Notes: a model not told the origin generated them from the letters alone. A stretch of DNA of 64,000 nucleotides from Limisphaerales bacterium (GCA_052325505.1 JBKQUS010000133.1:1807-65806); one strand, 5' to 3'. Positions 13,807 through 37,238 are shown, numbered from the stretch's first letter. A program made the numbers and translations.

Positions 13807-13888
13807 GTCAAAATCAGTGAAAAAAACATAGCTGAAGGCCAAGGCGCGCGCAAGTCAGTCGAATCCCTGGAAGTGGTACAGTTTGAAT

Positions 13889-14781: not shown

Positions 14782-15306
14782 TCATTTCCGGCGCGCCTTT
14801 TTTACCGGCGCGTCAGCCAGGGCGCGGCAACGTTCCGAGACCCAGGCCAGATTTTCCAAGAACTCCTCGCGCTTTTTCTCGCTCCATTCCGCCAGCGCCT
14901 CGGTTTGAAGCGCGGCGGCTATTTTCCGCGCACGGCTGTATTGCCTGCGGCCGGCGGGAAGGAGGCGCAGGCGGTTGGCGCGCCGGTCCTTTTCGTGGGG
15001 CGCACGCGCGACCCAGCCGCCATGCTCCATCCGTTCCACCAGCGCGCCGACGGTGTTCGGGTCGCTGGCCATCAGTCGGGTCAAATCGCTCTGCGTCAAT
15101 CCCCCCGGCTCGTGCTCGGACAACGTGCGCAAGGCGGTGAACTGGTCGGGAGTCAACCCGCTGCGCGCCAGGCGCCGGCGGAACGTCTGGTTCAAACTGT
15201 ACCAGGCATGGCGGAGCAGGATGGGCAGCCGCCGCCGCCCGGGCGCGTCGATGGGCAGGGCGGCGGAGGCGGAAACTTGTTTTTTGGAGGCCATGGGCGT
15301 TTGCAA
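14782..15306 (-). CDS. MarR-family transcriptional regulator
   Basis: 174 aa with a winged-helix core: LTPDQFTALRTLSEHEPGGLTQSDLTRLMASDPNTVGALVERMEHGGWVARAPHEKDRRANRLRL. It is divergent from the operon starting at 15418. Confidence 0.85.
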   Translation of the reverse strand: MQTPMASKKQVSASAALPIDAPGRRRLPILLRHAWYSLNQTFRRRLARSGLTPDQFTALRTLSEHEPGGLTQSDLTRLMASDPNTVGALVERMEHGGWVARAPHEKDRRANRLRLLPAGRRQYSRARKIAAALQTEALAEWSEKKREEFLENLAWVSERCRALADAPVKKARRK

Positions 15307-19677: not shown

Positions 19678-21389
19678 TTCCGGTCGTGGTCATATTGGTT
19701 TACCTCGCCGTCATCGCGGTCGTCGGCGGCGTGGCTTGGCGTCGGGGCAGGGAAAACACCGAGGATTTCTTCCTCGCCAGCCGGTCCGTCGGCCCGATTT
19801 TTTTCTTCTTGTCAATCTTTGCCACCAACATGACCGCCTTCGCCATCCTGGGCAGCTCGGGCCAGGCTTACCGGCAGGGCATCGGCATTTACGGCCTGAT
19901 GGCTTCTTCCTCCTGTTTTGTCATTCCCCTGACCCTCTTTTTCATCGGCACGCGCCTTTGGGCCATCGGCAAAAAATTCGGTCACCAGACCCAGGTGGCT
20001 TTCTTCCGCGACCGCTGGGAATGCAACCACATCGGCACCGTGATTTTTGCGTTGAGCGCCGCCATGTTGGTGCCCTACATGATTATCAGCATCATGGGCG
20101 GCGGCACCGTCCTGGCCGATATCTCCGCCTCGCCCGAAACCCATCAACCGCTCATCCCCTATGCCTGGGGGTGCGCCATCGTAGCCGTGGTCGTGACGCT
20201 CAACGTCTTCCTCGGCGGGATGCGCGGCACGGTCTGGGTCAACATTCTGCAAACGACCCTGTTTCTCTGTTTCGGTGCGGTGGCTGTGGCCGTCATCAGC
20301 CACGCCCTGCCCTTGGGCTTTGGCGATTATATGCAAAAATTGGCCGCGGACCCCAAAACGCGCTTTTTAGTCACGCGCGAAAGGATGCCTCCGCAGACTT
20401 TCTGGAGTTACACTTTGATCCCGCTTTCTTCGATCATGTTCCCGCACATGGCGATCATGTGTTTTTCCGCCCGCCGCGTTTCCGCCTTCAAACAAACTGT
20501 GGTCGCCTATCCCATTGCCATCATGGCCATCTGGCTGCCCTGCGTGTTTCTCGGTGTGCTCGGCTTTGCCGCGCTGGGCAAAATTCCCGATCCCGACGGC
20601 GTCCTGCTGCGCATGTTGCAATCGTACGCGCCCGTGTGGCTGGCCGGGATTTTGGGCGCTGGCATCATCTCTGCGGTGATGGGTTCGGATGCCCACCAAG
20701 TGCTGGCCCTGAGCACCATGTTCACCAGGGACGTCTTCGCCCATTATGGCGGGCATGAGAAATTCGGCGAAAGCCGCTCCGTCCATTTTGCGCGCGGCTT
20801 CATCGTGGTGGTCACGGTCATCGCTTGGCTGGTGGCGCTGGCGCTGAAGGAAAAGCAGGGCATTTTCGAAATCGCGATCCGTTACGCTTTTTCAGGATTT
20901 GCCGCGATGGCCCCGGTCATGGTGGCGGCGTTGTTTTGGCGGCGCAGCACCAAATGGGGCGCTTTGGCAGCGACCATTTTTGTCGCGGCCAGCCTCATCG
21001 CCACGGGTTTCCTCCAGGGAAAACCTGTGCCGTCGCCTGCCGCCGCCGCCAAGCTTTCGACAAACACTCTCGCGACCGCCGCGGTCCTAACCAACACAGC
21101 GCCAAATCTTGCCGCGACCAACGCACCACCGTCCAAGCTGGCATCCGCCGCTCCCGCCGCCGCCAAGCCAAAGGAAGACATCATCTGGCAAATCGGCCAG
21201 GGAGCCGATGCAATCAAAGTTCTTTCTCGCGCACCCAACGGCGACGTTCGTTTCCTCAACGGCTACATGACGGTTTTCCCGATGGTCCTGGGTTCGATCC
21301 TCTGCGTCGTTTTCTTCTCCCTCGCCACCCCGCCACCCAGCCGGGAGACCATAGCCAAATATTTTGACACACGAGTTCCTGAGAAATGA
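19674..21389 (+). CDS. Sodium:solute symporter (SSS) family permease
   Basis: 571 aa with about 13 TM helices. The N-terminal FFLASRSVGP motif is typical of SSS carriers. An unusual Ala/Pro-rich loop (aa about 445-500) precedes the last helix. Confidence 0.85.
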   Translation: MIPVVVILVYLAVIAVVGGVAWRRGRENTEDFFLASRSVGPIFFFLSIFATNMTAFAILGSSGQAYRQGIGIYGLMASSSCFVIPLTLFFIGTRLWAIGKKFGHQTQVAFFRDRWECNHIGTVIFALSAAMLVPYMIISIMGGGTVLADISASPETHQPLIPYAWGCAIVAVVVTLNVFLGGMRGTVWVNILQTTLFLCFGAVAVAVISHALPLGFGDYMQKLAADPKTRFLVTRERMPPQTFWSYTLIPLSSIMFPHMAIMCFSARRVSAFKQTVVAYPIAIMAIWLPCVFLGVLGFAALGKIPDPDGVLLRMLQSYAPVWLAGILGAGIISAVMGSDAHQVLALSTMFTRDVFAHYGGHEKFGESRSVHFARGFIVVVTVIAWLVALALKEKQGIFEIAIRYAFSGFAAMAPVMVAALFWRRSTKWGALAATIFVAASLIATGFLQGKPVPSPAAAAKLSTNTLATAAVLTNTAPNLAATNAPPSKLASAAPAAAKPKEDIIWQIGQGADAIKVLSRAPNGDVRFLNGYMTVFPMVLGSILCVVFFSLATPPPSRETIAKYFDTRVPEK

Positions 21390-22453
21390 AGGACACCATC
21401 CAAACTGCGCAGGATCAACTCGACGCCCACGTCCGCGAGATGATGCGCTGGCATTTTTCGCCGGAGACTGGGTCCACCTTCTGGCTGGACTGGGCCAAAA
21501 GGGCTGGCTGGAATCCCGCCACCGAAGTGAAATGCTTCGGCTGCCTGCAACGCTTCCCTCATTTCCAGGACGAGTGGCTGCGCGATTTGCAGCCGGAGGT
21601 CTGGGTCCCGAAACAATTCCAGGGCCGGCCCTTCAACATCTTCGAAACCGGCGGCACCACCGGCATGCCCAAGCAACGTATCGGTTGGGACGACTACAAG
21701 GTGGATTACGAGGAATTCTCCGCCAAACTTTCCGACGCCGACTTCCCGCGCGGCGCCGCCTGGCTTATGGTCGGCCCGACCGGGCCCCGCCGCTTGCGCC
21801 TGGCCATCGAGCACCTCGCCAATTTTCGCGGCAGCTCCTGTTACTTCATTGATCTGGACCCGCGCTGGGTCAAAAAGGTCCTGTCCGCAAAACAATTCGA
21901 CGCGGCCCGCGCCTACATGGACCATGTGGTGGACCAAGCCGTCACGATCCTGAAACACCGCAAAATTGCCGGCCTCTTCACCACGCCCAAACTGCTCGAA
22001 GCCCTGGGCGAGAAAATCCAGCTATGGGACGCCGGCATCCGCGGCGTGTTTTGCGGCGGCACAACTATGGCGCCGCAATACGTCCGTTACATCATCGAAG
22101 AAGTGCTCGAGAACCGCATTGGCTTCTATCCCGCCTACGGCAACACCCTGATGGGCCTGGCCGCCAGCGTTCCGCTCCGCCCCGAAGACCGGTTTTCCGT
22201 GACCTACTTCGCGCCCCAGCCCCGCGCTGTCCTGCGCGTCGTCGATCCCAACAAGACCGATCAACTTGTTGACTACGGAAAATGGGGCCGCGTCGAGTTG
22301 ACCACGTTGACCAGGGAATTCTTCATGCCGCGATTTCTGGAACGGGACGAAGCCATCCGCCGCGAGCCGCGCCCGCCCTATGCCTGGGACGGTGTCGCAG
22401 AAGTGCGCCCCTTCGGCGCGATGGAAAAAACCATCGTCGAAGGAGTTTATTGA
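21386..22453 (+). CDS. Adenylate-forming (PaaK/ANL-like) enzyme, putative
   Basis: 355 aa. FETGGTTGMPKQR resembles the (S/T)GTTGxPK AMP-binding P-loop of PaaK/F390-synthetase-like ligases. It is translationally coupled (ATGA) to the symporter. Confidence 0.5.
   Translation: MKDTIQTAQDQLDAHVREMMRWHFSPETGSTFWLDWAKRAGWNPATEVKCFGCLQRFPHFQDEWLRDLQPEVWVPKQFQGRPFNIFETGGTTGMPKQRIGWDDYKVDYEEFSAKLSDADFPRGAAWLMVGPTGPRRLRLAIEHLANFRGSSCYFIDLDPRWVKKVLSAKQFDAARAYMDHVVDQAVTILKHRKIAGLFTTPKLLEALGEKIQLWDAGIRGVFCGGTTMAPQYVRYIIEEVLENRIGFYPAYGNTLMGLAASVPLRPEDRFSVTYFAPQPRAVLRVVDPNKTDQLVDYGKWGRVELTTLTREFFMPRFLERDEAIRREPRPPYAWDGVAEVRPFGAMEKTIVEGVY
22309..22453 (+). repeat. Copy 1 of a 145-bp direct repeat (functional 3' end of the ligase-like gene)
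   Basis: My hand alignment to 28944..29088 gives about 125 of 145 identical positions, including the stop codon position. Confidence 0.85.
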
Positions 22454-22534
22454 CTGGGGGTCTCGTTCACATCGGTGTACCTCCCGCCAATCGTGCATAT
22501 TCCAGTAATAATGATAATTAGCAAATTAAATACA

Positions 22535-22556
22535 AAATTTGTCGCTTGACAAATTT
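22535..22556. promoter_or_regulatory. Inverted repeat containing a TTGACA box at the AT-rich left edge of the island
   Basis: The sequence is AAATTTGTC-GCTT-GACAAATTT, with 9-bp arms. It lies about 170 nt upstream of the Kelch gene start. A second 9-bp-arm hairpin (gtttgaatc...gattcaaac) follows at about 22572..22598. Confidence 0.3.
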
Positions 22557-22724
22557 CTAACTTAGTGTTGGAGTTTGAATCGCTGTGAAGGATTCAAACA
22601 CAACGAGTCGTAGCAGTGCAATCCGGGCTTCAAACGATGGGGTTCGAGTTTCAAAACCCCTTCTCAACGGCAGTGGCCGCATTTGTCCCCCTCCCCGCAA
22701 AACTGCAAACCAAAAGGTGATTCA

Positions 22725-25700
22725 ATGAAAACTCGTCCAGGAAATGTTGTTCAATTCGCACTGGCGCTGTCCGCGCTGGCAATCAACTCATGTGTCATTC
22801 AGTCGGTGCATGCCGTCAATTTCACCGGCACCGGCTCGGTGAGCTCCGCGCGCTGGGGTCAAACCGTCACCTTGCTCAACAACGGGAAGGTGCTGGTCGT
22901 GGGAGGTTCCGGCAGCAGCGGCGTTCTTTGCGAAGCGGAGCTTTACGATCCGGCCACTGGAACATGGACACCCACCAGTTCGCCGAACGCAGCGCGCATG
23001 AATCACACGGCGACCTTGCTCCCCAACGGGAAGGTAATGGTTGCCGGGGGCACAGATGGCAGCAGCGTTCTTTCCAGCACGGAACTGTATGATCCAACCG
23101 ATGGTTCGTGGACGACGGTCGACGGTCTGAACACCGCGCGCTGTTATCACACGGCAACCTTGCTGGGCAATGGCGAGGTGCTGGTCACGGGAGGCGAGGA
23201 CATCAGCGGAAACTCCAGCACCAAGTGCGAGTTGTACGATCCAGCCACCGGGTATTGGACGGTGTCGAAGGGCAATCATCTGCTCAGCGCGCGCTATATG
23301 CACACGGCGACGTTACTGCCCGATGGAAGGGTGCTGGTCGCGGGAGGCTTTAGCACACCCAACACGATACTTTCCAGTGCCGAGCTTTACACTCCGGGCG
23401 GCAGTGGTTTGTTATGGTTGCCGGCCAGCGACATGGGCGCCGCACGCGATGGTCACACGGCAACGTTGTTGCCCAATGGGACCGTGCTGGTTGCAGGGGG
23501 CCTTGGCCCCGGCGTTCTTAATAGTTCGGAGTATTACACTCCGGACAGTGGAGAGGGAACGTGGACGGTGACCGGCTCGTTGAACCAAGGACGTTGTGCC
23601 AGCACGGCGGCATTGCTGCCCAACGGGACTGTGCTGGTGACGGGAGGGTCGATCTACGAGGGGGTTCTCGAAGAAAGTCTTTCCAGCGCTGAACTATACG
23701 ATCCGAACAACAACGGTGGCACATGGACGACAACCGGCTCGCTCAACAACTCACGCTCCCATCACACGGCGACCTTGCTGGCAAACGGACAGATGCTGGT
23801 CGTGGGGGGCTACGAACCCACCCTTTTCGGCGGCCCCGTCCCTCTGTCCAGCACGGAACTGTATGATCCGTCCGAACCGATGTGGTGGACGACCGGTGTT
23901 GGTGCGCTAAACCAAATGCGCGCCAGCCAGACGGCGACGTTGCTGCCCATTGGGATGGTGCTGGTCGCCGGGGGCCTTGGCCCCACCGGCTGGCTGCCCA
24001 ACGCGGAGTCATATAATCCGGCCACGTGGACTTGGACAGTGACCGGCTCGCTGCACACCGCACGCTCCGGTCACACGGCGACCTTGCTGGCAAACGGAAA
24101 GGTGCTGGTGGTGGGAGGCATGAACAGCAGCGGCTATCTGCCAACCCATTATGGCGTGGAGCAGTACAATACGGACGACGGGACATGGGCGGTGCCACCC
24201 GCCAGTTGCAATCTCTGCCACCCCGCATCCGCACCGTTCCCGGCAGCTTTGGACAGCCGCCCGACAGGCCACCTGCATGTTGAACGCTCTCAGCACACAG
24301 CGACGCTGCTGAGCAATGGGAAGGTGCTGGTCGCCGGAGGTCAAACCGGCAGCAGCCTTGCCAATGCCACAGAGCTGTACGATCCGGCCACGGGGTTTTG
24401 GTCGCTATGGCCGCTGACAGCCAGAAGTTGCACCACCTGCCACACCGCCCCGCCTTCGGATGCCAGTGACAAACCGGCAGGCCACCTGCACACCCCTCGC
24501 TATGGTCACACGGCCACATTGATGCCCGACGGAACGGTGCTGGTCACGGGTGGCAAAAACGCCAACGGCTACTTAATGAATACTGAACCCGATGCAGGCC
24601 CCGGTTCAGGGCCCGGCATAGGCTTGGAGGTTAGCGTGGAGCAGTACGATCCCGTTACCGGGACGTGGGCGCCACCCAAGGACTGCGAAGACTGTCACAG
24701 GAATGGTTTGGTACCAGGACATTATGGCCACCTCGGCACCAGCGGTCGCAGTGATCACACGGCAACGTTGCTGCCCAATGGCGAAGTGCTCGCCGCGGGG
24801 GGCGAGGAGAACGGCATCGCTTCGTCCAGCTCAATGTTGTACTTCCCAGCCTTGCGGGAGTGGAGGAACACAACCAATATGGCCACCGGTGACATTACCT
24901 ATATGGTCACCGCACGTTATGATCACAAGGCGACCTTGCTGGCCAATGGGAAGGTTCTGGTGACGGGAGGGTATGATTCCAACGGCGACCCTGTCAACAA
25001 CGCGGAATTGTTCGACCCGGCCAGCGGGACGTGGACGGCCACCAGTCCGCTGACCACCGCACGCGGGGATCACACGGCGACGTTGCTGCCCAACGGGAAT
25101 GTGCTGGCCGCAGGTGGATTTGACAGCCTCGGCGATCCTCTTTCCAGTGCGGAAGTTTATAACGTTGGATTGGGTTTCTCAAACGTCTGGCAACCGCAGC
25201 TCGACCCGTTTGCCTCGGAACTCGCTTTGGGCGGCAACTTGACGATCAGCGGCTCCGGCTTTCGGGGCATCTCCGAAGGTTCGTGCGGCAACTCTCAGGC
25301 CTCGCCGGGGGATGTCCCGGTGGTGCAACTCCTCAGTCTGGCCAACGAGCAGACTTTGTTCCTGCTGCCCGATCCGGACACCGCCTGGTCGGACACGTCT
25401 TTCACTTCCGGGATCGTGACTGGATTCCCGCCCGGCTACGCGCTCGTGACGGTGTTCGTCAATGGCATTCCCAGCGTGCCCGCCTCGGACCCGCTGTTGC
25501 CCCTCATCGACATCCCAGGCAAGGGGAACATTCTCGACGTCAGTGTTCCGGTTCCGACCGCATCCACTCTGACGAATCTCACAACACTCGGCGACGGTTC
25601 GTACCAATTCGCCTTCACCAACACTGTTGGAGCGTTGTTCGGCGTGCTGGCCACCACGAATCTGGCGCTGCCGATGACCAACTGGACAGTCCTGGGCGGC

Positions 25701-25790
25701 GTCGCGGAAGTCTCGCTGGGCCAGTTCCAGTTCATTGATGCGCAAGCGGCGCTTTACCCGCAGCGATTTTACTGCGTGTACTCGCCGTAA
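22725..25790 (+). CDS. Secreted multi-blade Kelch-repeat protein with three CxxCH-containing blades and a C-terminal W...FY module
   Basis: The ATG at 22725 is preceded by aaggtga and gives signal peptide MKTRPGNVVQFALALSALAINSCVIQSVHA. There are about 17 repeats of the HTATLLPNGKVLVAGG + ELYDP..G.W type. The track start at 22683 is a TTG. Confidence 0.85.
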   Translation: MKTRPGNVVQFALALSALAINSCVIQSVHAVNFTGTGSVSSARWGQTVTLLNNGKVLVVGGSGSSGVLCEAELYDPATGTWTPTSSPNAARMNHTATLLPNGKVMVAGGTDGSSVLSSTELYDPTDGSWTTVDGLNTARCYHTATLLGNGEVLVTGGEDISGNSSTKCELYDPATGYWTVSKGNHLLSARYMHTATLLPDGRVLVAGGFSTPNTILSSAELYTPGGSGLLWLPASDMGAARDGHTATLLPNGTVLVAGGLGPGVLNSSEYYTPDSGEGTWTVTGSLNQGRCASTAALLPNGTVLVTGGSIYEGVLEESLSSAELYDPNNNGGTWTTTGSLNNSRSHHTATLLANGQMLVVGGYEPTLFGGPVPLSSTELYDPSEPMWWTTGVGALNQMRASQTATLLPIGMVLVAGGLGPTGWLPNAESYNPATWTWTVTGSLHTARSGHTATLLANGKVLVVGGMNSSGYLPTHYGVEQYNTDDGTWAVPPASCNLCHPASAPFPAALDSRPTGHLHVERSQHTATLLSNGKVLVAGGQTGSSLANATELYDPATGFWSLWPLTARSCTTCHTAPPSDASDKPAGHLHTPRYGHTATLMPDGTVLVTGGKNANGYLMNTEPDAGPGSGPGIGLEVSVEQYDPVTGTWAPPKDCEDCHRNGLVPGHYGHLGTSGRSDHTATLLPNGEVLAAGGEENGIASSSSMLYFPALREWRNTTNMATGDITYMVTARYDHKATLLANGKVLVTGGYDSNGDPVNNAELFDPASGTWTATSPLTTARGDHTATLLPNGNVLAAGGFDSLGDPLSSAEVYNVGLGFSNVWQPQLDPFASELALGGNLTISGSGFRGISEGSCGNSQASPGDVPVVQLLSLANEQTLFLLPDPDTAWSDTSFTSGIVTGFPPGYALVTVFVNGIPSVPASDPLLPLIDIPGKGNILDVSVPVPTASTLTNLTTLGDGSYQFAFTNTVGALFGVLATTNLALPMTNWTVLGGVAEVSLGQFQFIDAQAALYPQRFYCVYSP

Positions 25791-25894
25791 TCGCAGGCAG
25801 TTTTCCGGTTGAATCAATTCCTCACCCGGATGCATGGACAAATTGATTGGTCGAACAGGAAAGCAATGACAACGAACAAAATCTAAAATGTCTT

Positions 25895-26989
25895 ATGAAA
25901 ACACAATTCCTCCATCTATTCATGTTGCTGGCGGTGTTTGCCGGCATTCATCCCGCTCTGGCGCAAACAACCAATTTGAATATTGCGGCGGCGGGCAACC
26001 AAGTCGTTCTATTCTGGTCGGTCACGGACACGAATTACGTTCTGCTGAGCACCACCAATCTTGACTCCACAAACTGGGTGCCGGTCTGTAATGCCGTCCC
26101 GGTCACCGCCGTCACCGTCACCAACCTCCCAGCCACAATCTTTTTCCGTTTGGTCGCCACTACGGCCGGCATGGCGTTCGTTTGCGGGGGGCAGTTCACG
26201 ATGGGGGACACTTTGGATGGCGAGATGGATGCCATCCCCATCAGCGTAACGGTGACGGGATTCTACATGGAAACGAACCTGGTGAGCTACAGTCTGTGGC
26301 AGTCGGTCTATAATTGGGCCACGAACAACGGATATGGCTTCGACACCGCCGGTATGGGCAAGGCGTCGAACCATCCCGTGCAGTACGTGGATTGGTATGA
26401 CGCGGTGAAGTGGTGCAATGCGCGGTCGCAGCTCGCGGGTTTGACTCCGGTATATTACACGGACGCTGGTTTGACGCAGGTTTATGAGGGTTTTGCGGAC
26501 GTGGATGCTGTTTATGCCAACTGGTCGGCCAATGGCTACCGATTGCCGACGGAAGCGGAGTGGGAGAAGGCGGCTCGCGGCGGGCTGGACGGGAAACGGT
26601 TTCCGTGGGGCAATACCATCTCTGAAAGCCAGGCCAACTACTACGGAGACACCACCCTTGGCTACGATTTTGGACCGAACAGCTACAACGCAGCTTTTAC
26701 AAACGGAGCGATGCCTTATACGAGCCCGGTGGGGTCATTCGCACCAAACGGATATGGACTTTACGACATGGCTGGAAATGTACTGGAGTGGTGTTGGGAT
26801 TGGGATGGCACGCCTTACGGCCAGCCATCCACCAGTAATCCGACAGGACCGGCAACTGGAGACAACCGAGTGTTGCGCGGCGGCTCTTGGATGCACCGTG
26901 CCAACCTCGCGACGTGCGCCTATCGCTGGAGCTACAATCCGTATAATTGGGACGATTATGCCGGATTTCGTTGTGTGAGGACATATTAG
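25895..26989 (+). CDS. Formylglycine-generating-enzyme (SUMF1/FGE-sulfatase) domain protein, secreted
   Basis: The ATG at 25895 gives signal peptide MKTQFLHLFMLLAVFAGIHPALA. An N-terminal W...FFRL module is followed by FGE-domain motifs: GGQFTMGD, NHPVQYVDWYDAVKWCNA, GYRLPTEAEWEKAARGG, YDMAGNVLEWCWDW and RVLRGGSW. Confidence 0.85.
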   Translation: MKTQFLHLFMLLAVFAGIHPALAQTTNLNIAAAGNQVVLFWSVTDTNYVLLSTTNLDSTNWVPVCNAVPVTAVTVTNLPATIFFRLVATTAGMAFVCGGQFTMGDTLDGEMDAIPISVTVTGFYMETNLVSYSLWQSVYNWATNNGYGFDTAGMGKASNHPVQYVDWYDAVKWCNARSQLAGLTPVYYTDAGLTQVYEGFADVDAVYANWSANGYRLPTEAEWEKAARGGLDGKRFPWGNTISESQANYYGDTTLGYDFGPNSYNAAFTNGAMPYTSPVGSFAPNGYGLYDMAGNVLEWCWDWDGTPYGQPSTSNPTGPATGDNRVLRGGSWMHRANLATCAYRWSYNPYNWDDYAGFRCVRTY

Positions 26990-27081
26990 TTTTGTTCGTT
27001 TGCCCGGTAACCCCTTTGAACTTGTGGGCTTAACCGCCACTGCAATGCGTCTTCCACGCCACTTCGGACGGCTCGCTTCCA

Positions 27082-28801
27082 TCACGGGTTTGTCTGCATC
27101 AAGCGGTAGAAACGGCTTGAATTGGTGAGAGGCACCGGGTCGCTCCATATTTGGGTTGAGTTCGTCAAGGTCACGCTGCCCGCGGTCTGCCACTGGTTGC
27201 TGGTGTTCAGGCCTGAAACACTTTGAATCTGGTAGGTCCATCCCATCGAGCCGTAAATGGTGAACGAGACAGTCTGGCCGGAAAGGACGGGCGACTGGAT
27301 CTGGGGGGGGCGTTGTCTGCACCAAGCGGTAGAAGCGGCTTGAATTGGTGAACGGCACCGGGTCGGTCCATACCTGAGTCGAATTCGTCAAGGTCACGCA
27401 GTCCACTGTTTGCCAGTGGTTGCTGGTATTCAGGCTCGAGACACTTTGGATCTGGCACGAGTATCCGATCGAGCAGCAAATCGTGAACGAGACAGTCCGG
27501 CTGGAAAGGACGGGCCATTTGATCTGGGGGGGTGGATTGAGTCCGCTGAGGAAGAATGTGTTCGGCACTGGATTGAAATTATAGTTGTAGTCCATGCTGG
27601 TGGTGCCGCCCGTGACAAACAATCGGCCGTCCCTCAAGAGCGTCGTGGCCACGCTGCCGGGATAGTAGTTGGATATCGTCAACGGATCGGAAAGGGCGAG
27701 CGTCTCGCCGGTGGCCAGGTCCGCCTGATACACCCGGAAAGTGGCGTCGGCGCCTCCATCCGGGCTTGCCCCGGCCAGCATCAACACGCGGTTGTTGGCC
27801 GCATCCACCACGGGTGGCCAAACCGCCAGATTGTTCCAAAACACCGGCGTCAAGGCCAGCTTCGAGAATTGCTTGCTCGCCGGGTCGAAAAACGCCAGCG
27901 CGTACTCAGTGTTCGTGTTGACCGTTTCCCACATAAGGAACACGTAGCGGCCGTCGCTGGTTTTGAACCGTCCGACGTCCTCGCCATACTCCACGCCTCC
28001 GTAAACCCAGTTCGGCTCCCCGGCAATCGCGCACGCCGCCAGGACTGTGAAGGTGTTGCTGCCCGGATCGTAAAGCTCGATGGACGGGATGTTGGAGCTG
28101 CCGTAAATGTCCGTGCCGCCCACCACCACGGCTTTGCCATCCGACGTCGGGAATACCAAAGGCAACGACCGCGGGCTGTTCAGCGCGCCGGTTGCGGCAA
28201 AGGCTTTGTTGGACGGGGTGTAAATCTCGCCGTACGTGCCACTGCTGTAATCATACCATCCGCCGACGATCAGCACACTGCCTCCGGTCAACTGCGCGCC
28301 CTTGCAGCGCATCCGGGGAAGGTTCATCGTGGTGCCGGTGGACGCGACAGTTGCGCTCGTCGGACTCAACAGTTGCGCGGAAGCATAACCGGGCGCAACT
28401 CCCCAATCGGCGGCCCCTCCCGCCATCAAGTAAGTGCCGTCGGCCAGGGGGATCAGCGCGCCCATGTCATAGACAAAGGGCAGGCTCTGATTGACACAAC
28501 TGTTGTTCGCCAGCGTCCACAGATCCATGGAGTTGAGCGCGGAAAACCCCGTCCCGTGCCCGCCAAGCAGCGCCACTCTGCTATCCGGCAACTGGACAAT
28601 GTAGTGCCCCATGCGGGCCACGCTCATCACCGGCCCTGGCTCAAGGATGGCCCCGTTCCCGATAGCGCTACCGGCGACACCCAGCCAGCATGCCGCCGCC
28701 AGAATCAGGCCCAGCCGTCTTCGGCGACGACCCGGGGCCAATCGAATGTCTGCTGCGTGGGGTTCAACCTCAAGTTGTTGAATAAAGGGCTTGGTAGTCA
28801 T
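27082..28801 (-). pseudogene. Kelch-like beta-propeller secreted protein; frame broken at a C8 (plus-strand G8) tract between two tandem C-terminal modules
   Basis: The as-assembled ORF is 26735..28801. After the first FYRLVQ module the translation becomes low-complexity and overlaps the convergent FGE gene by 255 nt. Removing one C from the tract at 27303..27310 gives a second in-frame module (...SSRFYRLMQTNP) and a TGA at 27082..27084. The N-terminus has RRRRRLGLILAAACWLGVAGSA. Confidence 0.7.
27088..27532 (-). repeat. Tandem duplication of a 215-nt coding unit, each copy preceded on the coding strand by a poly-C tract (C7, then C8)
   Basis: Copy A is 27311..27525 and is preceded by the C7 tract at 27526..27532. 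Copy B is 27088..27302 and is preceded by the C8 tract at 27303..27310. The copies are roughly 80 percent identical by eye. A C7-plus-unit length of 222 nt is in frame; with C8 it is 223 nt. Confidence 0.85.
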
Positions 28802-28943
28802 GCATAGAGAATATCAAACGCCACTTCATTGTCAATCAGAAATGGTAATTATCACAAACTTTAAGATGAGATTTGCTTCTCTATGATTTTACGTAAGTGC
28901 TTGCAAATCAACGCTGCAAAGGTGGCAATACAGTTCAACACCC

Positions 28944-29088
28944 GACCAGGGAATTCTTCATGCCGCGATATCCAGAGCGCGACGAAGCCATCCGCCGCGA
29001 ACCGCGCCCGCCGTACGCTTGGTACGGCGTCGGCAAAGTCCGCCCCTTCGGCGCAATGGAAAAAACCATCGCCGAAGGAGTCTATTAG
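28944..29088 (+). pseudogene. Orphan relic of the ligase-like gene 3' end (copy 2 of the 145-bp repeat)
   Basis: It translates to TREFFMPRYPERDEAIRREPRPPYAWYGVGKVRPFGAMEKTIAEGVY*. The end of the intact gene reads TREFFMPRFLERDEAIRREPRPPYAWDGVAEVRPFGAMEKTIVEGVY*. Weak similarity continues about 20 nt further upstream and then stops. Confidence 0.85.
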
Positions 29089-29098
29089 CCCGGGCGGA

Positions 29099-29686
29099 TC
29101 AACGGCTTTGCTGGAGCAAGGGAATAAGCCAACCTGGCAGCGGGTTGGCCAGGAAGGTCGCTTTTCCGTTTTCGAACTCCGCCACGCGATGGAAGGGATG
29201 ATTCAAATCATCGTTGTCGAAGATGATCACATGAGGCAGAACAGGAATCGCGGCTTTCAAATTCGCCAGCGTTCGCGGGAAACGTGTCACCAATTTGGCC
29301 AACGGCACGTCATGGCCTCCTTGCGAGACCCGCATCGCGACGCGTTGATCGGAAGTTTCAGGGCTGCCGATGCCGATAAAACAGAGCGCCACTTGATAGC
29401 CCCTCCTCATCGCGTCTTTCAGAAACGCCAGCTTGTCGCCCGCCGGATCGGAGAAGACGGTCTCGAACACAAAACTTTCGCGTTGATCCACCAGACGTTG
29501 CCGCAGCACCCCTGCCATTTTCGCCGCGTCATAAACATCGATCCCCAGTTCCCTCGCCAGGATGTCCGCATCGACCAGACGCAGTGCGCTGGGTTGAAGG
29601 TGAGTATGGTAAAATGTGGTCTTCCCGGCTCCGTTTGATCCGGCCAGAGCGACGATCACGGGACGTTTGTCGAGGGGCAAAATCAC
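29099..29686 (-). CDS. Zeta-toxin-like P-loop kinase (toxin candidate)
   Basis: 195 aa with Walker A LAGSNGAGKTTFY close to the N-terminus. Its size and layout resemble zeta/AAA_33-type toxins. It overlaps the upstream small gene by 4 nt. Confidence 0.65.
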   Translation of the reverse strand: MILPLDKRPVIVALAGSNGAGKTTFYHTHLQPSALRLVDADILARELGIDVYDAAKMAGVLRQRLVDQRESFVFETVFSDPAGDKLAFLKDAMRRGYQVALCFIGIGSPETSDQRVAMRVSQGGHDVPLAKLVTRFPRTLANLKAAIPVLPHVIIFDNDDLNHPFHRVAEFENGKATFLANPLPGWLIPLLQQSR

Positions 29687-30063
29687 TTTTTCCTGGGCGC
29701 ACCCACCCGGAACCGCCGGTTGACGAAACGCCCGACAGTGCGCTTCCCGCCTTCATCGATGCGCACCAGGAACCCCGGCTTGTTGGGGGCCGGTTCGTAA
29801 TGCGGATAGGGCAGCGTGTTGAGATACGTTTCCAGCCGTCTTCGGCCCTTGGAGGAATCGGCCGACGCCAGGCACTCCGAGAGAGGGCGGGGGCCGGCCA
29901 TTTTGCAGAGGGCCAGGGCTTGATCCCCTTTCAGCAACGGTTCGATGGCGCGGCCCAAATTGGCCCAAAACTCAATTTGTCCGGCGATGGATCGTTCCGC
30001 GATCTCGCCCGTCAAACGCGCATCCAGCACCAGGACATCCGAAAGCTTCACCGGTTGACTCAT
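29683..30063 (-). CDS. ParD-like antitoxin candidate
   Basis: 126 aa lying immediately upstream of, and overlapping, the zeta-like gene. The N-terminal region (VKLSDVLVLDARLTGEIAERSIAGQIEFWANLGRAIE) resembles my recollection of the ParD_like family. Confidence 0.5.
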   Translation of the reverse strand: MSQPVKLSDVLVLDARLTGEIAERSIAGQIEFWANLGRAIEPLLKGDQALALCKMAGPRPLSECLASADSSKGRRRLETYLNTLPYPHYEPAPNKPGFLVRIDEGGKRTVGRFVNRRFRVGAPRKK

Positions 30064-30210
30064 GGTGTCATGGTAGCATATTGCTACCGACTGTCAAACT
30101 ACCCGCCGCCAAGGCGTCCGGAAAAGAGACGAAACGCACAGTTAACTTCATGCTCAAAAAGTGGGCGGCGCAAAATCGGACTTCGCCATTCCAGATGCTC
30201 CCGCCAAACT

Positions 30211-31875
30211 TCAGCTTCCGGCCTTTTCCAGCATTTCCCGCGCGTGCTGCAGGGCGGTGTCGGTCTGGTCCCCCAGCATTCGGGCGATTTCACGCACGCG
30301 TTGCGCGGAGTCAAGCATTGTGATTTCGGATATGGTCCGGCCCGACTCGATCCGCTTGGTGACGACGTAATGCGCGGCGGCGCTGGCGACCACGGCAGGC
30401 AAATGCGTGATGCAGACCACCTGGTGCCGGCGGCCGATTTCCCGCATCTTCTCCCCCACCACCACCGCCGTTCCGCCGCCGACGTTGGCGTCGATTTCGT
30501 CGAAGACCAGCAGCGGAATTTCATCCTCGGCGGCCAAAACGGTTTTAAGGGCCAGCATGACGCGCGACATCTCGCCGGAGGAAGCGATGGCGCGCAATGG
30601 CCGCGCCGGTTCGCCGGCGTTGGGCGCGAACTGAAATTCAATTTCGTCCAGGCCGGAGGCGGAAGGGGTTTCGACGGCGCGCAAAGTGACTTCGAAATGG
30701 CTCCGTTGAAATCCCAGGCCCTGCAATTGTTTCATGGCCGCTTTGACCAGTTTGGGAATGGCCTTGTGGCGCTGAACGGAAAGTTCCCGGCCCAGGCGGG
30801 CTATCTCATCGCGGAGCGTTTGCAGCGCGCCGTTGATCCGCGCCAACTCGGCGTCGCGCTGTTCCAGGTTTTGCAGTTTCCTTTGCGCCTCTTCGCCGAA
30901 GGCGATGACCGCCGGCAGCGTCGCTCCGTATTTGCGTTTGAGTGACTGAACCAGATTGAACCGCTCTTCCAATTTCTGAAGCTGCGCCGGATCGACTTCG
31001 AGTCCGTCGGCGTAGCGGTGCAACGCCGAGGGTAACTCGTTCCAAACCGACATGGCCTGCTCATGGAGGCCTGTCAAGCTGGCGGCGGACGAATCGAGCC
31101 GTTGCAAGGCCTGGAGCGTCCGGCCCAGCGCGCCCGCCTGCCGCAACAGGGAATCCTCCTGTTCGCCCAAAAGGTTGAGCGCCTCCTGGCACAACTCCAG
31201 CAGCCGCGAGGCATTGCCGGCGCGTTGAAAATCCTCCGTCAACCGGCCCTCTTCGTCGGGCTGCAATCGCGCCGTGGAAATCTCCCGGCTCTGGAAGCGG
31301 AGCAGATCCAGTTGGCGGGCGTAGGTCTGTTCATCGACAATCAACACGGCTTTTTCATTTTCCAAATCAGAACTGCGCCGGATCAAGCCGGCGAACGTTT
31401 CACGGGTTGGATTCAGGCCGGCAAAGGCGTCGAGAATCTCCAGTTGTTTGGCCGGATGCAGCAGCGACTGGTGTTCGTACGGCCCGTGCATATCCACCAA
31501 TTCGCGCCCCACGGCAGCCAGCATTTGCAGCGTGGCGGGGGAGCCGTTGATGAACTGCCGGTTGGCCCCGGCGGCGGTCAGGACGCGTTTGAGCAGGAGC
31601 TGGTTGTCGACACAGGGTTCCAGCCCGTTTTCCTCAAGGAATTTTTGCAGGCGGCGCAGTGCCGGCCCTTCGAAAACCGCTTCCACCGAACAATTCTCGC
31701 ACCCGGCGCGGATCAGCTCGCGGTCCGCCCGTTCCCCCAGCGCCAGGTGCAGCGCGCCGATGATAATTGATTTGCCGGCGCCGGTCTCGCCGGTGATGGC
31801 ATTGTATCCCGGCTGCAATTGCAGCGTGAGATCAGAAACCAGGGCCAAATTCTTAATGCGCAACGTGCTTAACAT
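30211..31875 (-). CDS. recN: DNA repair protein RecN
   Basis: The ATG at 31875 gives MLSTLRIKNLALVSDLTLQLQPGYNAITGETGAGKSIIIGAL. Long coiled coils follow, then a C-terminal SGGEMSRVMLALK signature and LVFDEIDANVGG Walker B. Confidence 0.9.
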   Translation of the reverse strand: MLSTLRIKNLALVSDLTLQLQPGYNAITGETGAGKSIIIGALHLALGERADRELIRAGCENCSVEAVFEGPALRRLQKFLEENGLEPCVDNQLLLKRVLTAAGANRQFINGSPATLQMLAAVGRELVDMHGPYEHQSLLHPAKQLEILDAFAGLNPTRETFAGLIRRSSDLENEKAVLIVDEQTYARQLDLLRFQSREISTARLQPDEEGRLTEDFQRAGNASRLLELCQEALNLLGEQEDSLLRQAGALGRTLQALQRLDSSAASLTGLHEQAMSVWNELPSALHRYADGLEVDPAQLQKLEERFNLVQSLKRKYGATLPAVIAFGEEAQRKLQNLEQRDAELARINGALQTLRDEIARLGRELSVQRHKAIPKLVKAAMKQLQGLGFQRSHFEVTLRAVETPSASGLDEIEFQFAPNAGEPARPLRAIASSGEMSRVMLALKTVLAAEDEIPLLVFDEIDANVGGGTAVVVGEKMREIGRRHQVVCITHLPAVVASAAAHYVVTKRIESGRTISEITMLDSAQRVREIARMLGDQTDTALQHAREMLEKAGS

Positions 31876-32217
31876 GGCGGCAGCCCGCAGAGTAAAGTTC
31901 CCGGTCCGAACTTCAAAGTTTAAACTGCATGGCATGGGTGATTGAAAGTGGGTGAGATTCATCAATCATTCGCCCAACGGGAGAACATCATTCAGCCAGG
32001 GGTCGCCCCGATTCCCAGAGGGGCTACCCCAGGCCATGGTCCGTTATCCTCCCCTACTCGGAACGGGTTTCCGCTATTGGCCTGCACGAACTAATGATTG
32101 ATCGATTATCTTTTCATTGAAAGTGGCTCTATAAAACAGACATTATACGGAGTAGGTTGGACCGTTTACAGGTTCTTTAAATGATCCTGTAAGTTTGTGT
32201 CAACTCAACAACGCCGC

Positions 32218-34782
32218 ATGAAAATTCGCATTATAAAACCATTTGTTGCTTTGGGCGCTGTCGCGCTGCTGATCTCTTCGGGGTCGAATGGTTGTGCCCT
32301 GGCTGATCCTGCTCCTGCACCGTCAACGTTCGATGCTGCCGTTGCCGGCGTCTGCCATGGTCCGGCCGGTCGGTATGTGCTGTGGTATCAGCAGCCGGCA
32401 ACAAATTGGTATGAAGCACTTCCGGTCGGCAATGGCCGCCTGGGCGCGATGATTTTCGGTGACACGAAAATGGAGCACCTGCAGCTCAATGAAGACACGA
32501 TCTGGTCCGGCGGTCCGTATCAGCCGGCACGAGCCCCGGCACTGGAAGCTGTCAAGCAGGCGCGTGAATTGGTTTTCAAGGGCACACCGGAAGCGCAGAG
32601 AGAGGCTTGTGGCTTGCTTTACCAAAATGCGATGGGCCAACCCATGAAGGAAACCTCATATCAACTTCTGGGCGACCTGGCGCTGACATTCCCGAGCAAC
32701 GTCCTTCCTGTCACGGATTATTACCGCGCGTTGGATCTGGATACCGCCGTTGCGGTCACGACCTACAAGGTTGGTGACATCACCTACACCCGCGAGGAGT
32801 TTGCCAGTTATCCCGACCAGGTCATTGTGGCTCGCATGTCGGCGGATAAGCCCGGTAGTGTCAGTTTCACCGCCGCCTTTGCGTCGCCGCTCAAAGGTTT
32901 CCGGCAAACGGCCGAAGGCAATACGCTCGTGATGCAGGGCCGGGCTGGTGACTACAGAAAAACCGTCAGGGAATATTGGATGCCGGATCAAATCCCCCAA
33001 TCCGCCCGCACTCCCATCCACGACGTGGATGTTCCCGGCGTCATCGTCGCCCATACCCGGCTCGCCGCGAAAAATGACGGCGGCAAAGTCACTGTGACCA
33101 ACGATGGTCTCACGGTGGAAAACGCCAACTCGGTCACGTTGATCATTTCCGCCGCAACGAATTTCAAGAATTACCACGACGTTTCCGGCGACGCGAAAGC
33201 CCGGGCCGGCGCCGCGCTCAAAGCCGCGACAAAAAAATCATACGCGCAGTTGAAGTCGGCTCATCTGGCCGATTACCAGGCCCTGTTTCGTCGCGTTTCG
33301 ATTGATCTGGGCAGGACCGACGACGCAAGCCTGCCCACCAACGAGCGGATACCGAATTTTTCCAAGGGCAACGACCCGGATCTGGCGGCGCTTTACTTTC
33401 AGTTTGGACGTTACCTCCTGATTTCCTCCAGCCGCCACGGCGGTCAGCCTGCCAATCTACAGGGACTCTGGAACGGTGCAAACTTCCACACCGGCGAACT
33501 GGACATGAGCGGGAAGGAGTATTACGGCTCGCCGATGTCCCCCGCCTGGGGCAGCAAATATACGGTGAACATAAATACCGAGATGAATTACTGGCCCGCC
33601 GAAACTGCGAATCTCTCCGAGTGCGCCGAACCGCTCTTCGGGATGATCAAGGACCTTTCCGTTGCCGGCGCCGTGACCGCCAAGACCATGTATGGCGCCG
33701 ATGGCTGGGTCGTCCATCACAACACCGACCTCTGGCGTGGCACGGCTCCGGTGGATTTTCCTCCTACCGGCATGTGGCCAATGGCGGGTGCCTGGCTTTG
33801 CACCCATCTTTGGGAGCACTACCAGTTCGCCGGCGACAAGGCGTTCCTGAAGCAAGCCTATCCGCTGATGAAGAGTGCGTCCGAATTTTTTGTGGATTAT
33901 CTGGTGCCCGACCCAAACCATCCCGAATGGATGGTGACGTGTCCCTCGTTTTCGCCGGAGAACGGCGGTCTCTGTGCGGGGCCGGCCATGGATAACGGCC
34001 TGCTGCGTGACTTATTCGGCCAAACGGCGAAGGCTTCGGAGATTCTCGGCAAGGACGCCGCGTTTCGGAAACAGATTCTCGCCTTGCGGGCGAAACTGCC
34101 GCCGTTCAAGGTCGGCAAATGGGGACAGTTTCAGGAATGGCTGGATGACATGGACAATCCAAACGACAACAACCGGCATGTCTCGCAGCTCTACGCCCTT
34201 TTTCCCAGCAGCCAGATCAGTCCATCCGGCACACCGGAACTTTTCAATGCCGCAAAGGTCACGCTCAAAGGCCGCGGCGATGCGGGCACGGGCTGGAGTC
34301 TCGCGTGGAAAATCAATTTTTGGGCGCGCCTCCTTGACGGCGACCACGCCTATTTGATTTTGACGCATTTGCTCGACGCTCCGGGAAGCCACGGCAGTTC
34401 TTTTGATACCGGTGGCGGCACTTACCCTAATCTTTTTGACGCGCATCCGCCGTTCCAGATTGACGGCAATTTCGGCGCTGTATCCGGCATCACCGAAATG
34501 CTCCTGCAAAGCCAGGAGCGTTACGGAAACCGAAAGGCTCCGGGTGAAGAGGGTTGCATTATTGATCTGTTGCCCGCGCTGCCGAAAGCATGGCCTGACG
34601 GTTCGGTGAAGGGACTCCGGGCCCGCAGCGGCTTCGAGGTGGACATCGCATGGCAGGGCGGCAGGCTGACTGAAGCCACGGTGCATTCGCTCAACGGAAA
34701 TCCCGTAAGGCTTCGTTACGGCTCGACCACGCATAACTTGCATTTGAAAAAAGGCGAAAGCTTCCTCTGGGATGGGAAATGA
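32218..34782 (+). CDS. GH95-family alpha-L-fucosidase-like glycoside hydrolase, secreted
   Basis: It has a signal peptide [20 protein letters not shown]. The N-terminus [45 protein letters not shown] is the characteristic GH95 N-terminal domain. Length is about 850 aa. Confidence 0.85.
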
Positions 34783-37238
34783 ATGCTGTTCGATGCTCAT
34801 TCTTAAGTGGAACGGCAACGGCGATTGGCTTCATGCTGGTGGTCATGTTCTCTGGCGGTGCCATCCAGACCCATGCCGCACCGGTCCCCAATGGTTCCGC
34901 GGAAGTTCCTGGGATAGCGAACCCGCAGCCAAAAGTGGCACCACCGCTGACCAAGGTTCTTCGGATCGTACAGGATCCGGCCGGCCGGCAGCTTCAGTCG
35001 GCCTTCATCTGGACGGACGCCGCGGCAACCGGGGACAATCCGGGAGTGGCGGTTGGATTCCGTAAAAGTTTTAACCTGGAACGGATTCCCGCCAGCGCCT
35101 GCCTGCAACTCTTCGCCGACGCCCGCTATATCCTGTGGGTGAACGGAACCTACGTGGAGCGCGGTCCGGCCCGGTTCCAGCCCAACGGGCCTGAATACGA
35201 CTCGGTGGAGATCGCGGCTTTTTTGCAGGCCGGAGAAAACAGCATTGCCCTGCTGTGTGTCGGAAACCTCTCCGGGGGCAAGGTGATGAGGCATCCGCCG
35301 GGTTTGACTGCGACGCTTAAAATCGGGAAACGGACGCTTTGGTCCACGGACGAATCCTGGAAGTGGTCAGATTCCACCCGTTTCCGAGCCGTGAGTGCCA
35401 GTTGGCCGGACCTGGGTGAATCCTTGGTGGACGCCACCGTGGAAGACGGCGACTGGACGCAGCCCGGTTACGACGATATGCATTGGAAAACTGCGTCCAA
35501 GATTTCGGGAGCCTTATGGGGGCCGCTCACTTTGCGGCGAATTCCCCGCCTTAGGGAAACCGTCGTCCCGGTTCATTTTGCCAACGGGGTGAGCCTGCCG
35601 GTTACGCTTTCTGCCGGTGAGAAACTGGAATTCACGTCAGACCGGATTGTGCAGGCGTATCCGATGATCACCTTGGAAGCGGTGGCGGGAACGGTGTTGC
35701 AGGTTGAACCCTATGATGTCACCTACGTGGCCAAGGCCGGACCCCAGAGTTACTTTACCATCGACACGCGCGGGATTGCCAATGGCGCGGTCGTGGTCAG
35801 CAAGGGGCAGGCGACCATTCAGGGATTCAAGCTGGTGGAACGCCTCTATCCGTTTGATTGCCCGGCTTCCTTCACCAGTTCTGATTCGTTTCTGGACCGA
35901 CTCTGGGCAATGTGCGCCCGCTCCGGCCAGGTGCTCGGTGAGGATTCGTATGTTGACTGCGCCGACCGCGAACGCGTGGAGTGGATGGATGACACGCCGC
36001 CGGGATACGACATCACGCGCACGGCGATGGCCGTGACCGGCAGTGACGGCCACACCAACTTTGGAGATCCGAGACTGCTGGGGGAACTGATCCGCCGCAC
36101 GGCGCTCACGCTGCAGCCCGGTGGCTGGGTGAAGGCTCATACCTGTTCCGATCGCTTCGATATCCACGCCAAGATGGAAGACCGGGCTTGCGACTGGGTT
36201 GAGGGAGTGCGCCTTTACGAAGAAGCCACTGACGACAAAGACGCGGTGCTGGAAATCTGGCCGGCAATGGTCGCCCAGATGGACTACTTTCTGGATCGCC
36301 GCACCGAGCGAGGTTTGGTGCGCGCCCGCGATTGGGTCGTCTGGGGCAATCCGGTTGGCTATTTTACCGGTGAGGGAACCACGCTGAATGTCTTTGTTTG
36401 CCGTGCGCTGGAGGATGCGGCCAAGCTGGCGGCACTCATCGGCAAACGAGCCGACAGCCGCCGTTTTGCCAAAGCCGCCACCGATCTGAAACAGGCAATC
36501 AACACAGTGCTCTGGGACGAAGCTGCGGGCACTTATTATGCGGGATACTTCACCGATGCGGACGTTGCGGAGTCCAAGCGGAAGTTTTCTCTCCCCCGCG
36601 AAAACAACCTTGCTTCACCAACTCTTCATGCCAGCATCTTTGCCTTGGATCGGGGCGTGGTTCCAATTGAGCGGCGGGAGCGCGTCTTGCAAGCCACGTT
36701 GAAACAGGAGGCCGTGGGGAACGCACGCGTGATGACTTATTATTATCTGGCCAAACAACTCTATGCAATGGATGAGCCGGCTTATGACCAGCAGGTGCTC
36801 GACCTCTTCCGTAAAAAATGGTCGGCGATGGCGGCTTCGCCATGGCAGTGTTCGTGGGAGGATTTTGACGGAGGTTCCAAGGCGCATATCTACGGAATGT
36901 ATCCCGGATATTTTCTTGGCGCCTATGTGTTGGGGGTTCGCCGTGATGCCCCGGTTTCTTTCAAGGAACTTCGTATTGAACCTCATCTGGCCGACCTGGT
37001 CACAGCGAAGGGAACCGTTGTTACCGAATACGGGCCGGTGCCGGTCTCTTGGACAACTACCAGGGTTGATCTGACGTTCACCCTTACGGTTCCGCCGGGG
37101 ATAAAAACCACGCTATCCATTCCGTATCGTGCCGGTCACGAGAGCGTCCGGCTGGATGGCAAGGATGTAAAAGGAACCCACCGAGCAAACCGTTTGGAAA
37201 TCCTGCTCCGCGCAGGTGATCATCAGGCAAATTATTAA
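34779..37238 (+). CDS. GH78-like (alpha-L-rhamnosidase family) six-hairpin glycoside hydrolase
   Basis: 819 aa with an ATGA overlap with the GH95 gene. It shows [37 protein letters not shown] (rhamnosidase N-terminal-domain pattern) and a later (alpha/alpha)6-like region. Confidence 0.6.

Follow-up and report, generated by a model that had tools for sequence, protein, structure and literature searches.

Analysis of a 64,000-nt stretch of DNA from a Limisphaerales bacterium (GCA_052325505.1 JBKQUS010000133.1:1807-65806; hereafter the window, whose coordinates count along the whole stretch) indicated that the 3'-end of a gene coding for an EhpF-like adenylate-forming enzyme, here called the ligase-like or ligase gene, is present twice, once in the intact gene and once as an orphan fragment, and that a segment with three genes for exported proteins (Kelch1, FGE and Kelch2) was inserted between the two copies (island region 22309-29088). 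With moderate confidence, the best explanation of this arrangement is homology-anchored (homology-facilitated) illegitimate recombination at a hot spot, without a dedicated recombinase. Ligase-gene or cargo loci that were compared, from genome and metagenome collections, carry L-number labels (L001, L085 and so on). The features on which the argument depends are the following:

21386..22453, plus strand: gene of the EhpF-like adenylate-forming enzyme (ligase-like gene), 355 aa, intact
22309..22453, plus strand: copy A, the resident ligase 3'-end, last 47 codons and TGA
22454..28943, no strand assigned: inserted segment of 6490 nt, absent from the empty-site relative L085
28944..29088, plus strand: copy B, the orphan ligase 3'-end, 47 codons and TAG, contiguous with the zeta/ParD genes as the intact gene is in L085
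29099..29686, minus strand: zeta-toxin-family kinase gene, PF06414 E 2.5e-14
29683..30063, minus strand: ParD-like antitoxin gene, PF11903 E 2.5e-11, overlapping the zeta gene by 4 nt

Alignment of copies A and B, which are direct repeats in the same orientation, revealed 125 identical nucleotides out of 145 without any gap, the first 26 nt being perfectly identical (blastn E 1.7e-46 within the window). The deduced peptides are TREFFMPRFLERDEAIRREPRPPYAWDGVAEVRPFGAMEKTIVEGVY and TREFFMPRYPERDEAIRREPRPPYAWYGVGKVRPFGAMEKTIAEGVY, and their stop codons, TGA and TAG, are in register. The duplication had been described in the original prediction with about 125 of 145 nt identical, the same stop position and a spacing of 6490 nt, all of which was confirmed. 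A nucleotide profile search (nhmmer) suggested weak additional homology from ~28933, just left of the orphan. The structure is not an accident of assembly, since it is reproduced by a second contig of the same assembly (L081), which spans it entirely with 1 mismatch in 21 kb, and by an independent ENA assembly (L164), 99.2% identical, which covers Kelch2, the orphan, the zeta/ParD pair and the adjoining recN gene.

A relative with an empty site, in which the ligase gene would be directly followed by the zeta/ParD pair, had been predicted and was found in L085. In this metagenome contig, whose deduced ligase is 92% identical in amino acid sequence, 17 nt separate the end of an intact ligase gene from the zeta gene, and nucleotides 8607-9768 align in one piece with positions 28944-30105 of the window at 87.4% identity. 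L083, L084 and L086 also carry the zeta/ParD genes on the downstream side of the ligase gene, separated from it by other genes. The divergence values of the zeta/ParD genes were 88-89% between the window and the L083-L086 contigs and 90-92% among the contigs, and those of the ligase gene in the same comparison were 89-91% versus 92-95%; the two sets run in parallel, which fits vertical descent of the ligase-to-zeta/ParD adjacency. Because the ligase gene of L085 is directly followed by zeta/ParD, the orphan together with zeta/ParD is the old junction, and the Kelch1-FGE-Kelch2 block plus one copy of the ligase end is the net insertion.

The place of insertion has its own history in related genomes. 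In 44 of 80 genome loci an ALDH-family gene begins ~14 nt past the ligase stop codon and is followed by an Fe-alcohol-dehydrogenase (Fe-ADH) gene; the order ligase, ALDH-family, Fe-ADH is likely an ancestral operon, of which both the ALDH-family and the Fe-ADH genes are absent from the window. The interval between the ligase gene and these two genes is, in the loci compared, a hypervariable hot spot. Within the clade of the window the interval after the ligase gene is filled differently in every contig, as follows:

L084: DUF4062 protein and DUF6883 protein (together 2319-3266), rhomboid, zeta/ParD, then the ALDH-family gene
L086: filling resembling that of L084, zeta gene truncated
L083: open reading frame (ORF) of 114 aa, PIN-type pair (VapBC; 11998-12638), zeta/ParD, a 76-nt ligase-end fragment, intact Kelch2, then the ALDH-family gene

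The order in the window is Kelch, orphan, zeta/ParD and that in L083 is zeta/ParD, orphan, Kelch2, so that Kelch and zeta/ParD fillings have been fused in both orders. In other lineages the hot spot was seen to gather defence-type and toxin-antitoxin genes, namely a solitary BrxH/DrmD-like SNF2 helicase, DUF4062 with DUF6883, and a PIN-domain pair.

Ligase-type matches were obtained in more than 1100 stretches, and about 200 distinct loci were examined. When all loci examined were searched with a nucleotide profile built on the terminal 240 nt of the gene, four further ligase-end duplications were revealed:

L040: 129 nt duplicated, 88% identity; cargo of one 81-aa ORF in ~270 nt
L056: 98 nt duplicated, 94% identity; cargo of two small overlapping genes in ~700 nt
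L083: ~76 nt remaining, 76% identity (to the gene end of the window); cargo zeta/ParD
L184: 171 nt duplicated, 85% identity; cargo of one gene for a 1331-aa SNF2 helicase of the BrxH/DrmD type (11117-15112)

The five duplications, that of the window included, are independent. Counted from the stop codon, the orphans start at ~-171, -145, -129, -98 and ~-104 nt, and two of the five starts (L056 and L083) coincide. Empty sites were not found for L040, L056 and L184, whose downstream flanks match no other locus compared. Pfam and PADLOC scans, by which the cargo was annotated, detected no recombinase in the cargo of L040, L056, L083 and L184, which makes none in five cases with the window. In the latter, all ORFs of the segment between the copies and of the neighbours on either side were accounted for and none codes for a recombinase, in agreement with the original prediction, in which no integrase or transposase was seen.

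Comparison of each resident gene end with its orphan was possible in four pairs. These differ at 48 third codon positions and at 17 first and second positions; the differing codons comprise 44 synonymous and 16 non-synonymous ones, and the stop codons differ within three of the four pairs. Duplication in situ followed by neutral drift of the orphan would be expected to place ~46% of the differences at third positions, and the excess observed is significant (P 5e-6). Since the differences lie mostly at third codon positions, each pair consists of two alleles that diverged under purifying selection in working genes of different lineages and not of the products of a local duplication. The earlier suggestion that the replacement end was of foreign origin fits this result.

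The orphan of the window carries in addition five replacements, F>Y, L>P, D>Y, E>K and V>A, at residues that are invariant in 80 relatives; these represent decay of the orphan after its displacement. The orphan end is identical at 128 of 142 nt to L084, a member of the zeta/ParD-carrying clade, versus 118 of 142 nt to L001, the nearest genome, a difference that is not significant, and the resident end is about equally near to that clade and to L001. Assignment of the imported copy was attempted with the identities of both copies to gene ends of relatives and with a sliding-window comparison along the upstream block, for which 142 nt do not suffice. To the left and to the right, in the upstream block and in recN, the backbone is closest to the metagenome-assembled genome (MAG) SPRUCE 17, the source of L001.

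The empty site of L085 shows that in the ancestor of the window the zeta/ParD pair came directly after the ligase gene. Under homology-anchored illegitimate recombination the incoming DNA would have derived from a related verrucomicrobial lineage and contained, in this order, the ligase 3' region of that lineage, Kelch1, FGE and Kelch2. On the left side homologous recombination would have taken place within the highly conserved ligase gene or farther upstream, and on the right side an illegitimate join would have linked the incoming DNA to the recipient at a point ~145-153 nt ahead of the stop codon of the recipient's ligase gene. The outcome would be an intact ligase gene, partly or wholly imported, the cargo, the last 47 codons of the recipient as a decaying orphan, and the old downstream genes. 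In the five cases the last 76-171 nt of the recipient would survive as an orphan because the far join lies slightly upstream of the end of homology; a join falling past the stop codon would leave no orphan and would explain the repeat-free fillings of L084 and L086.

The ligase gene is well suited as an anchor: its C-terminal 55 residues are near-invariant, homology ends at the stop codon and the repeat starts with the 26-nt identical block. A conserved shared anchor, unrelated cargo, varying junctions and the absence of a recombinase, as the model has it, were observed for the five events, and two alleles for the four pairs that were compared. In L061, L136 and L141 the helicase gene of L184 occurs on the downstream side of the ligase gene and no orphan accompanies it, which represents, for the L184 case, the donor-type arrangement that the recombination model needs; a donor arrangement with the ligase gene followed by Kelch1-FGE-Kelch2 without an orphan was not found. 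Inspection of the junctions revealed that the orphan-to-Kelch2 junction of L083 shares GGA, that the Kelch2-to-orphan junction of the window has an imperfect match of 6/8 nt (AGTTCAAC vs AGTTGACC), and that the right flank of zeta/ParD in L084-L086 matches the ligase gene over the 10-nt AAGCCATCCG, exactly where the L083 orphan begins.

Several points weigh against this explanation. The microhomology is only suggestive, as no junction was compared with both true parental sequences and the match in the window is the imperfect one; for the 10-nt match in L084-L086, an origin as the final trace of an orphan since deleted is just as possible. The orphans of L056 and L083 begin at the same nucleotide (ATCCGCCG), which could hint at a preferred site. 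The ends of the cargo are tidy and lie outside complete genes in all cases, which is less expected of random illegitimate joins; selection for working units could explain them. To our knowledge, natural competence or another route of DNA uptake is not known for this lineage. The survey, finally, covered only about 200 of the more than 1100 matching loci.

Site-specific integration, of the type known for prophage e14 or phage 21 at icd, is a doubtful possibility. An attP carrying the ligase 3'-end would have been used by a tyrosine or serine recombinase that was later lost or acted in trans, and the island would be either a remnant stranded at the site or a satellite cassette devoid of an integrase. 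In its architecture the locus equals icd-e14-icdC, an intact gene with a substituted end followed by cargo and by the displaced end (PMC13626634). An empty site exists in L085, the copies are distinct alleles, the 26-nt identical block could act as a core, and the common start of the L056 and L083 orphans and the tidy ends of the cargo would likewise be expected of it. On the contrary, no recombinase is present in any of the five independent cases, whose inserted segments leave no room for one, and the length of the duplication varies each time (171, 145, 129, 98 and ~76 nt). The cargo is unrelated between cases, with inserts as small as ~270 and ~700 nt that are too small for autonomous elements, and no ligase end was found in 2.9 million IMG/VR contigs scanned both with the whole protein and with an alignment of the C-terminal end. 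No tRNA gene is present in the window and no Rfam family matches the region 20000-32000; moreover, Kelch2 orthologues occur at ordinary chromosomal sites elsewhere, and the GC content (GC) of the island and that of its third codon positions (GC3) are native-like. Of the original prediction, which had proposed site-specific integration into the 3'-end with displacement of the original end, the insertion and the displacement are thus borne out by L085, and the site-specific mechanism is not, for want of a recombinase, given the varying lengths, the unrelated cargo and the lack of an IMG/VR match.

One form of site-specific integration, which we regard as quite unlikely, would make the ligase 3'-end a dedicated attachment site at which a yet unrecognised recombination system encoded elsewhere loads integrase-less cassettes, each with a replacement gene end. 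If true, this would amount to an integron-like capture platform on a protein-coding gene for toxin-antitoxin pairs, defence helicases and secreted proteins. As to a true integron cassette array, no integrase lies in or beside the interval and a repeat search showed no shared hairpin at the module ends, no search with an attC model having been made.

Insertion-duplication of the Campbell type seems rather unlikely. A circularised fragment from a related genome, with the ligase 3'-end and its downstream genes, would have been taken in through a single homologous crossover within the ligase end, duplicating the homology that it carried. This predicts the observed order, namely the gene and the cargo in the native arrangement of the donor and then an abruptly starting partial copy, and it likewise predicts a variable repeat length, two alleles and no recombinase. 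RecA-type exchange needs identity of about the size of the 26-nt block. A circular non-replicating intermediate with an illegitimate closing junction is required, which is less economical than the linear fragment of homology-anchored illegitimate recombination. The structure produced by the two routes is the same and the present sequences do not separate them.

Local events alone, either duplication of the gene end in situ (a long target duplication) that later diverged or survival of the last piece of a decayed tandem paralogue, are very improbable. They would agree with the same orientation of the direct repeats and with the decay of the orphan; the synonymous third-position bias is found in all four pairs, the stop codons differ in three of them, no other ligase remains exist in the window, and the empty site shows the orphan to be the end of the original single gene. 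The codon-position bias rules out the duplication in situ. The original prediction had itself considered a decayed tandem paralogue with recognisable upstream remains, and this was ruled out when the whole ligase gene was compared with the 64-kb window by tblastn and blastn, which retrieved the 145-nt copy only and no upstream remains at the orphan. A template repeat of a diversity-generating retroelement, which a near-copy of ~145 nt downstream of the gene would resemble, or an artefact of assembly is practically negligible, given that there is no reverse transcriptase, that A is found in the orphan at only 6 of the 20 mismatches, so that these are not adenine-specific, that the gene end is nearly invariant across relatives and not hypervariable, and that three assemblies agree on the structure.

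Homology-facilitated illegitimate recombination is known from laboratory events in transformable bacteria (Acinetobacter, Streptococcus pneumoniae and Pseudomonas stutzeri), in which one homologous anchor is used and the far end is joined illegitimately near the end of homology, usually with deletion of recipient DNA. Unlike in these events, the join proposed here lies inside the homologous stretch, so that the end of the anchor is duplicated, and the organisms are uncultured. Homology-facilitated illegitimate recombination has also been proposed for the effector-immunity arrays of the type VI secretion system (T6SS) and for the displacement of Rhs C-termini (PMC5361080). The event resembles the T6SS arrays of Vibrio cholerae and the displacement in Rhs and contact-dependent inhibition (CDI) systems with orphan 3' fragments, in that a conserved upstream anchor is used, a new 3'-end enters with its downstream genes, the old 3' piece and the old downstream gene are kept, and no integrase is found (PMC5361080). 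In those systems, however, the displaced ends are variable toxin domains with immunity genes and are kept by selection for immunity, while the end duplicated here comes from a metabolic enzyme and hardly varies, nothing connects the cargo with the anchor gene, and no use of the orphan is apparent.

The likeness to prophage e14 and phage 21 at icd of Escherichia coli, with the icdC pseudogene, extends to the substitution of the last ~50 codons, the inserted DNA, the displaced C-terminal fragment in direct orientation and the mostly silent differences (PMC13626634). On the contrary, e14 has its own integrase by the att site, is a recognisable prophage and is precisely excised upon SOS induction, while the island has no integrase. 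As in integration hot spots, flexible genomic islets and defence-island hot spots, one interval holds different accessory genes in close genomes and many fillings are without a repeat; unlike in the usual hot spots, a subset of the events leaves a duplicated gene end that records their direction and allelic origin. Additive acquisition at a hot spot via a conserved anchor is a known kind of event, of which this is a further example, with an unusually clean footprint that recurs in several lineages.

The locus provides a clear natural example, with an empty site and evidence at the level of alleles, of foreign genes added beside a conserved gene without the machinery of a mobile element; such addition is well described in the laboratory, and records of it from uncultured bacteria in nature are few. 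To call an integrative element, a direct repeat of a gene 3'-end around an islet does not suffice, which is relevant to the automated prediction of islands and prophages. The interval between the ligase and ALDH-family genes is marked as a hot spot for toxin-antitoxin, defence-type and secreted-protein genes in Verrucomicrobiota of peat and soil, and orphan gene ends at such a hot spot are usable to order successive acquisitions.

The three genes for exported proteins reported between the copies (a Kelch, an FGE and a Kelch-like protein) were confirmed by domain matches, and all three deduced proteins begin with signal-like hydrophobic segments, as judged by eye:

22683..25790, plus strand: Kelch1, a large secreted Kelch-repeat propeller with 13-14 repeats, ~1021-1035 aa, Kelch_4 E 1e-92
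25847..26989, plus strand: FGE-sulfatase (SUMF1/EgtB/PvdO-type) domain protein with an N-terminal signal-like segment, PF03781 E 7e-52
27082..28801, minus strand: Kelch2, a divergent secreted Kelch-type protein with two tandem C-terminal domains of ~74 aa
28808..28835, minus strand: promoter-like site of Kelch2, TTGACA-16-TATTCT, inside the right AT-rich edge

The coding DNA of Kelch1 holds the repeat families D1-D5. Three CxxCH motifs (CNLCH, CTTCH and CEDCH) occur at about residues 500-665 of the deduced protein, in insertions between Kelch blades, and a weak NCBIfam match to a CxxCH c-type cytochrome domain was obtained (TIGR01904, E 0.001); Kelch1 may be a haem-binding secreted propeller. 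The Kelch1-FGE pair, 85% identical, occurs in L168 without Kelch2. The FGE protein belongs to a very large paralogous family and its nearest non-self homologue is 91% identical.

Analysis of Kelch2 revealed a +1 frameshift in a run of C near 27310 (27300-27320, minus strand), between the tandem domains, by which the second domain is out of frame; the ORF continues into the FGE gene (26735..28801) and the last domain is left as a separate 54-aa ORF (27082..27246). The frameshift is also present in the independent assembly L164, and intact orthologues are found in L083 (575 aa) and L169 (573 aa). The frameshifted Kelch2 is thus either a pseudogene or the bearer of a slippage-prone tract. The tandem domains correspond to a 220-nt repeat (27090-27309 and 27313-27532, 84% identical) coding for two ~74-aa copies that end in RFYRL, and the distant orthologues in L165-L167 have a single copy of this C-terminal domain. 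A public gene call at 27410-28807 (L081 16031-17422) is a plus-strand ORF of 463 aa, arginine-rich and protein-unlike; judging from the Kelch matches and the close orthologues the call appears to be on the wrong strand and the real Kelch2 on the minus strand.

The Kelch2 module (27067-28939) recurs in L083 and L169 with the same ends, within ~6 nt. In L169 (4515-7108) it adjoins the last 230 nt of the Fe-ADH gene; the remainder of that gene and the ALDH-family gene have been deleted, and the endpoint of this deletion lies within ~6 nt of the limit that the module has in the window and in L083. No close relative of Kelch2 was found in the GTDB genome collection; in metagenomes its orthologues occur in other contexts, ordinary chromosomal sites among them.

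Comparison of the island with its flanks, as the original prediction had advised, gave GC values of 0.55-0.61 and GC3 values of 0.66-0.77 for the island genes, which are within the native range of the flanking genes. The tetranucleotide correlation is low, 0.851 against 0.953 +/- 0.022, a value that is confounded by the Kelch repeats. The AT-rich edges that had been noted are real and at least two hold promoter-like sites, those of Kelch2 (28835-28808) and of the ParD-like gene (30097-30070); the edges would represent promoters of genes and not the ends of an element. The coincidence of the module limits with promoters would explain the AT-rich edges as well as the retention of complete working units.

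The zeta-toxin/ParD-like pair located outside the right copy (29099..30063) in the original prediction was recovered with PF06414 and PF11903. Its layout, a kinase gene preceded and overlapped by a small antitoxin gene, fits that of type II toxin-antitoxin systems, and the deduced zeta protein is 86-89% identical in amino acids to homologues near the ligase gene in L083-L085. Two further features lie to the right:

30070..30105, minus strand: promoter-like site of the ParD gene and the palindrome GGTAGCA-N3-TGCTACC, the right limit of the zeta/ParD module, where homology to L083-L086 ends
30211..31965, minus strand: recN, the right flank, TIGR00634 E 6e-139

Immediately to the right of zeta/ParD the window reads AAACTACCCGCCGCCA at 30092-30110. 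Aligned in the register expected from L083, 12 of 16 nt agree with the ligase AAGCCATCCGCCGCGA; as a possible older orphan trace at 30092-30110 this was not significant in an unbiased local alignment.

Synteny with the closest genomes (L232-L234) stops exactly at the recN stop codon (30211), which indicates that recN is not the ancestral neighbour. In these genomes recN is followed by a convergent gene of 366 aa, a mechanosensitive channel gene and a UbiB-like gene, and zeta/ParD is not found there. In the MAG MFD05580 recN and the ligase gene are ~209 kb apart on the same strand, while in the window they are convergent neighbours; this difference is compatible with a large inversion that has one of its breakpoints at the hot spot. 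Farther to the right, positions 32000-38036 of the window comprise ~6 kb with a GH95 gene and the next gene, in place of which the closest genome (L232) has ~3.2 kb of other DNA; this is a further variable segment.

The deduced ligase-like protein matches EhpF, a truncated adenylate-forming enzyme, over its full length (PDB 3L2K/3HGU, E 5e-42) and has weak AMP-binding and F390-synthetase matches. Its amino acid identity across the ~200 distinct verrucomicrobial loci is 76-95%, and the C-terminal 55 residues are nearly invariant among relatives. The gene is the last of a conserved block, syntenic in relatives, that comprises two PQQ-type propellers, DUF3311 and an Na+/solute symporter, and DNA homology to the closest relatives (L001 92%, L002 87%, L084/L085 89%) does not extend past the ligase stop codon. 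On the left, synteny with L001-L005 and L083 breaks off near ~14785, at the same place (14770-14846) in all of them, which points to a second hot spot at the border of the conserved block from PQQ to ligase. Contigs L184, L188, L020, L079 and others bear public labels such as Bifidobacterium, Akkermansia muciniphila, Methylomirabilota and Saccharimonadales, yet clearly carry the verrucomicrobial ligase locus, and the non-verrucomicrobial labels on such contigs are probably errors of binning or naming.

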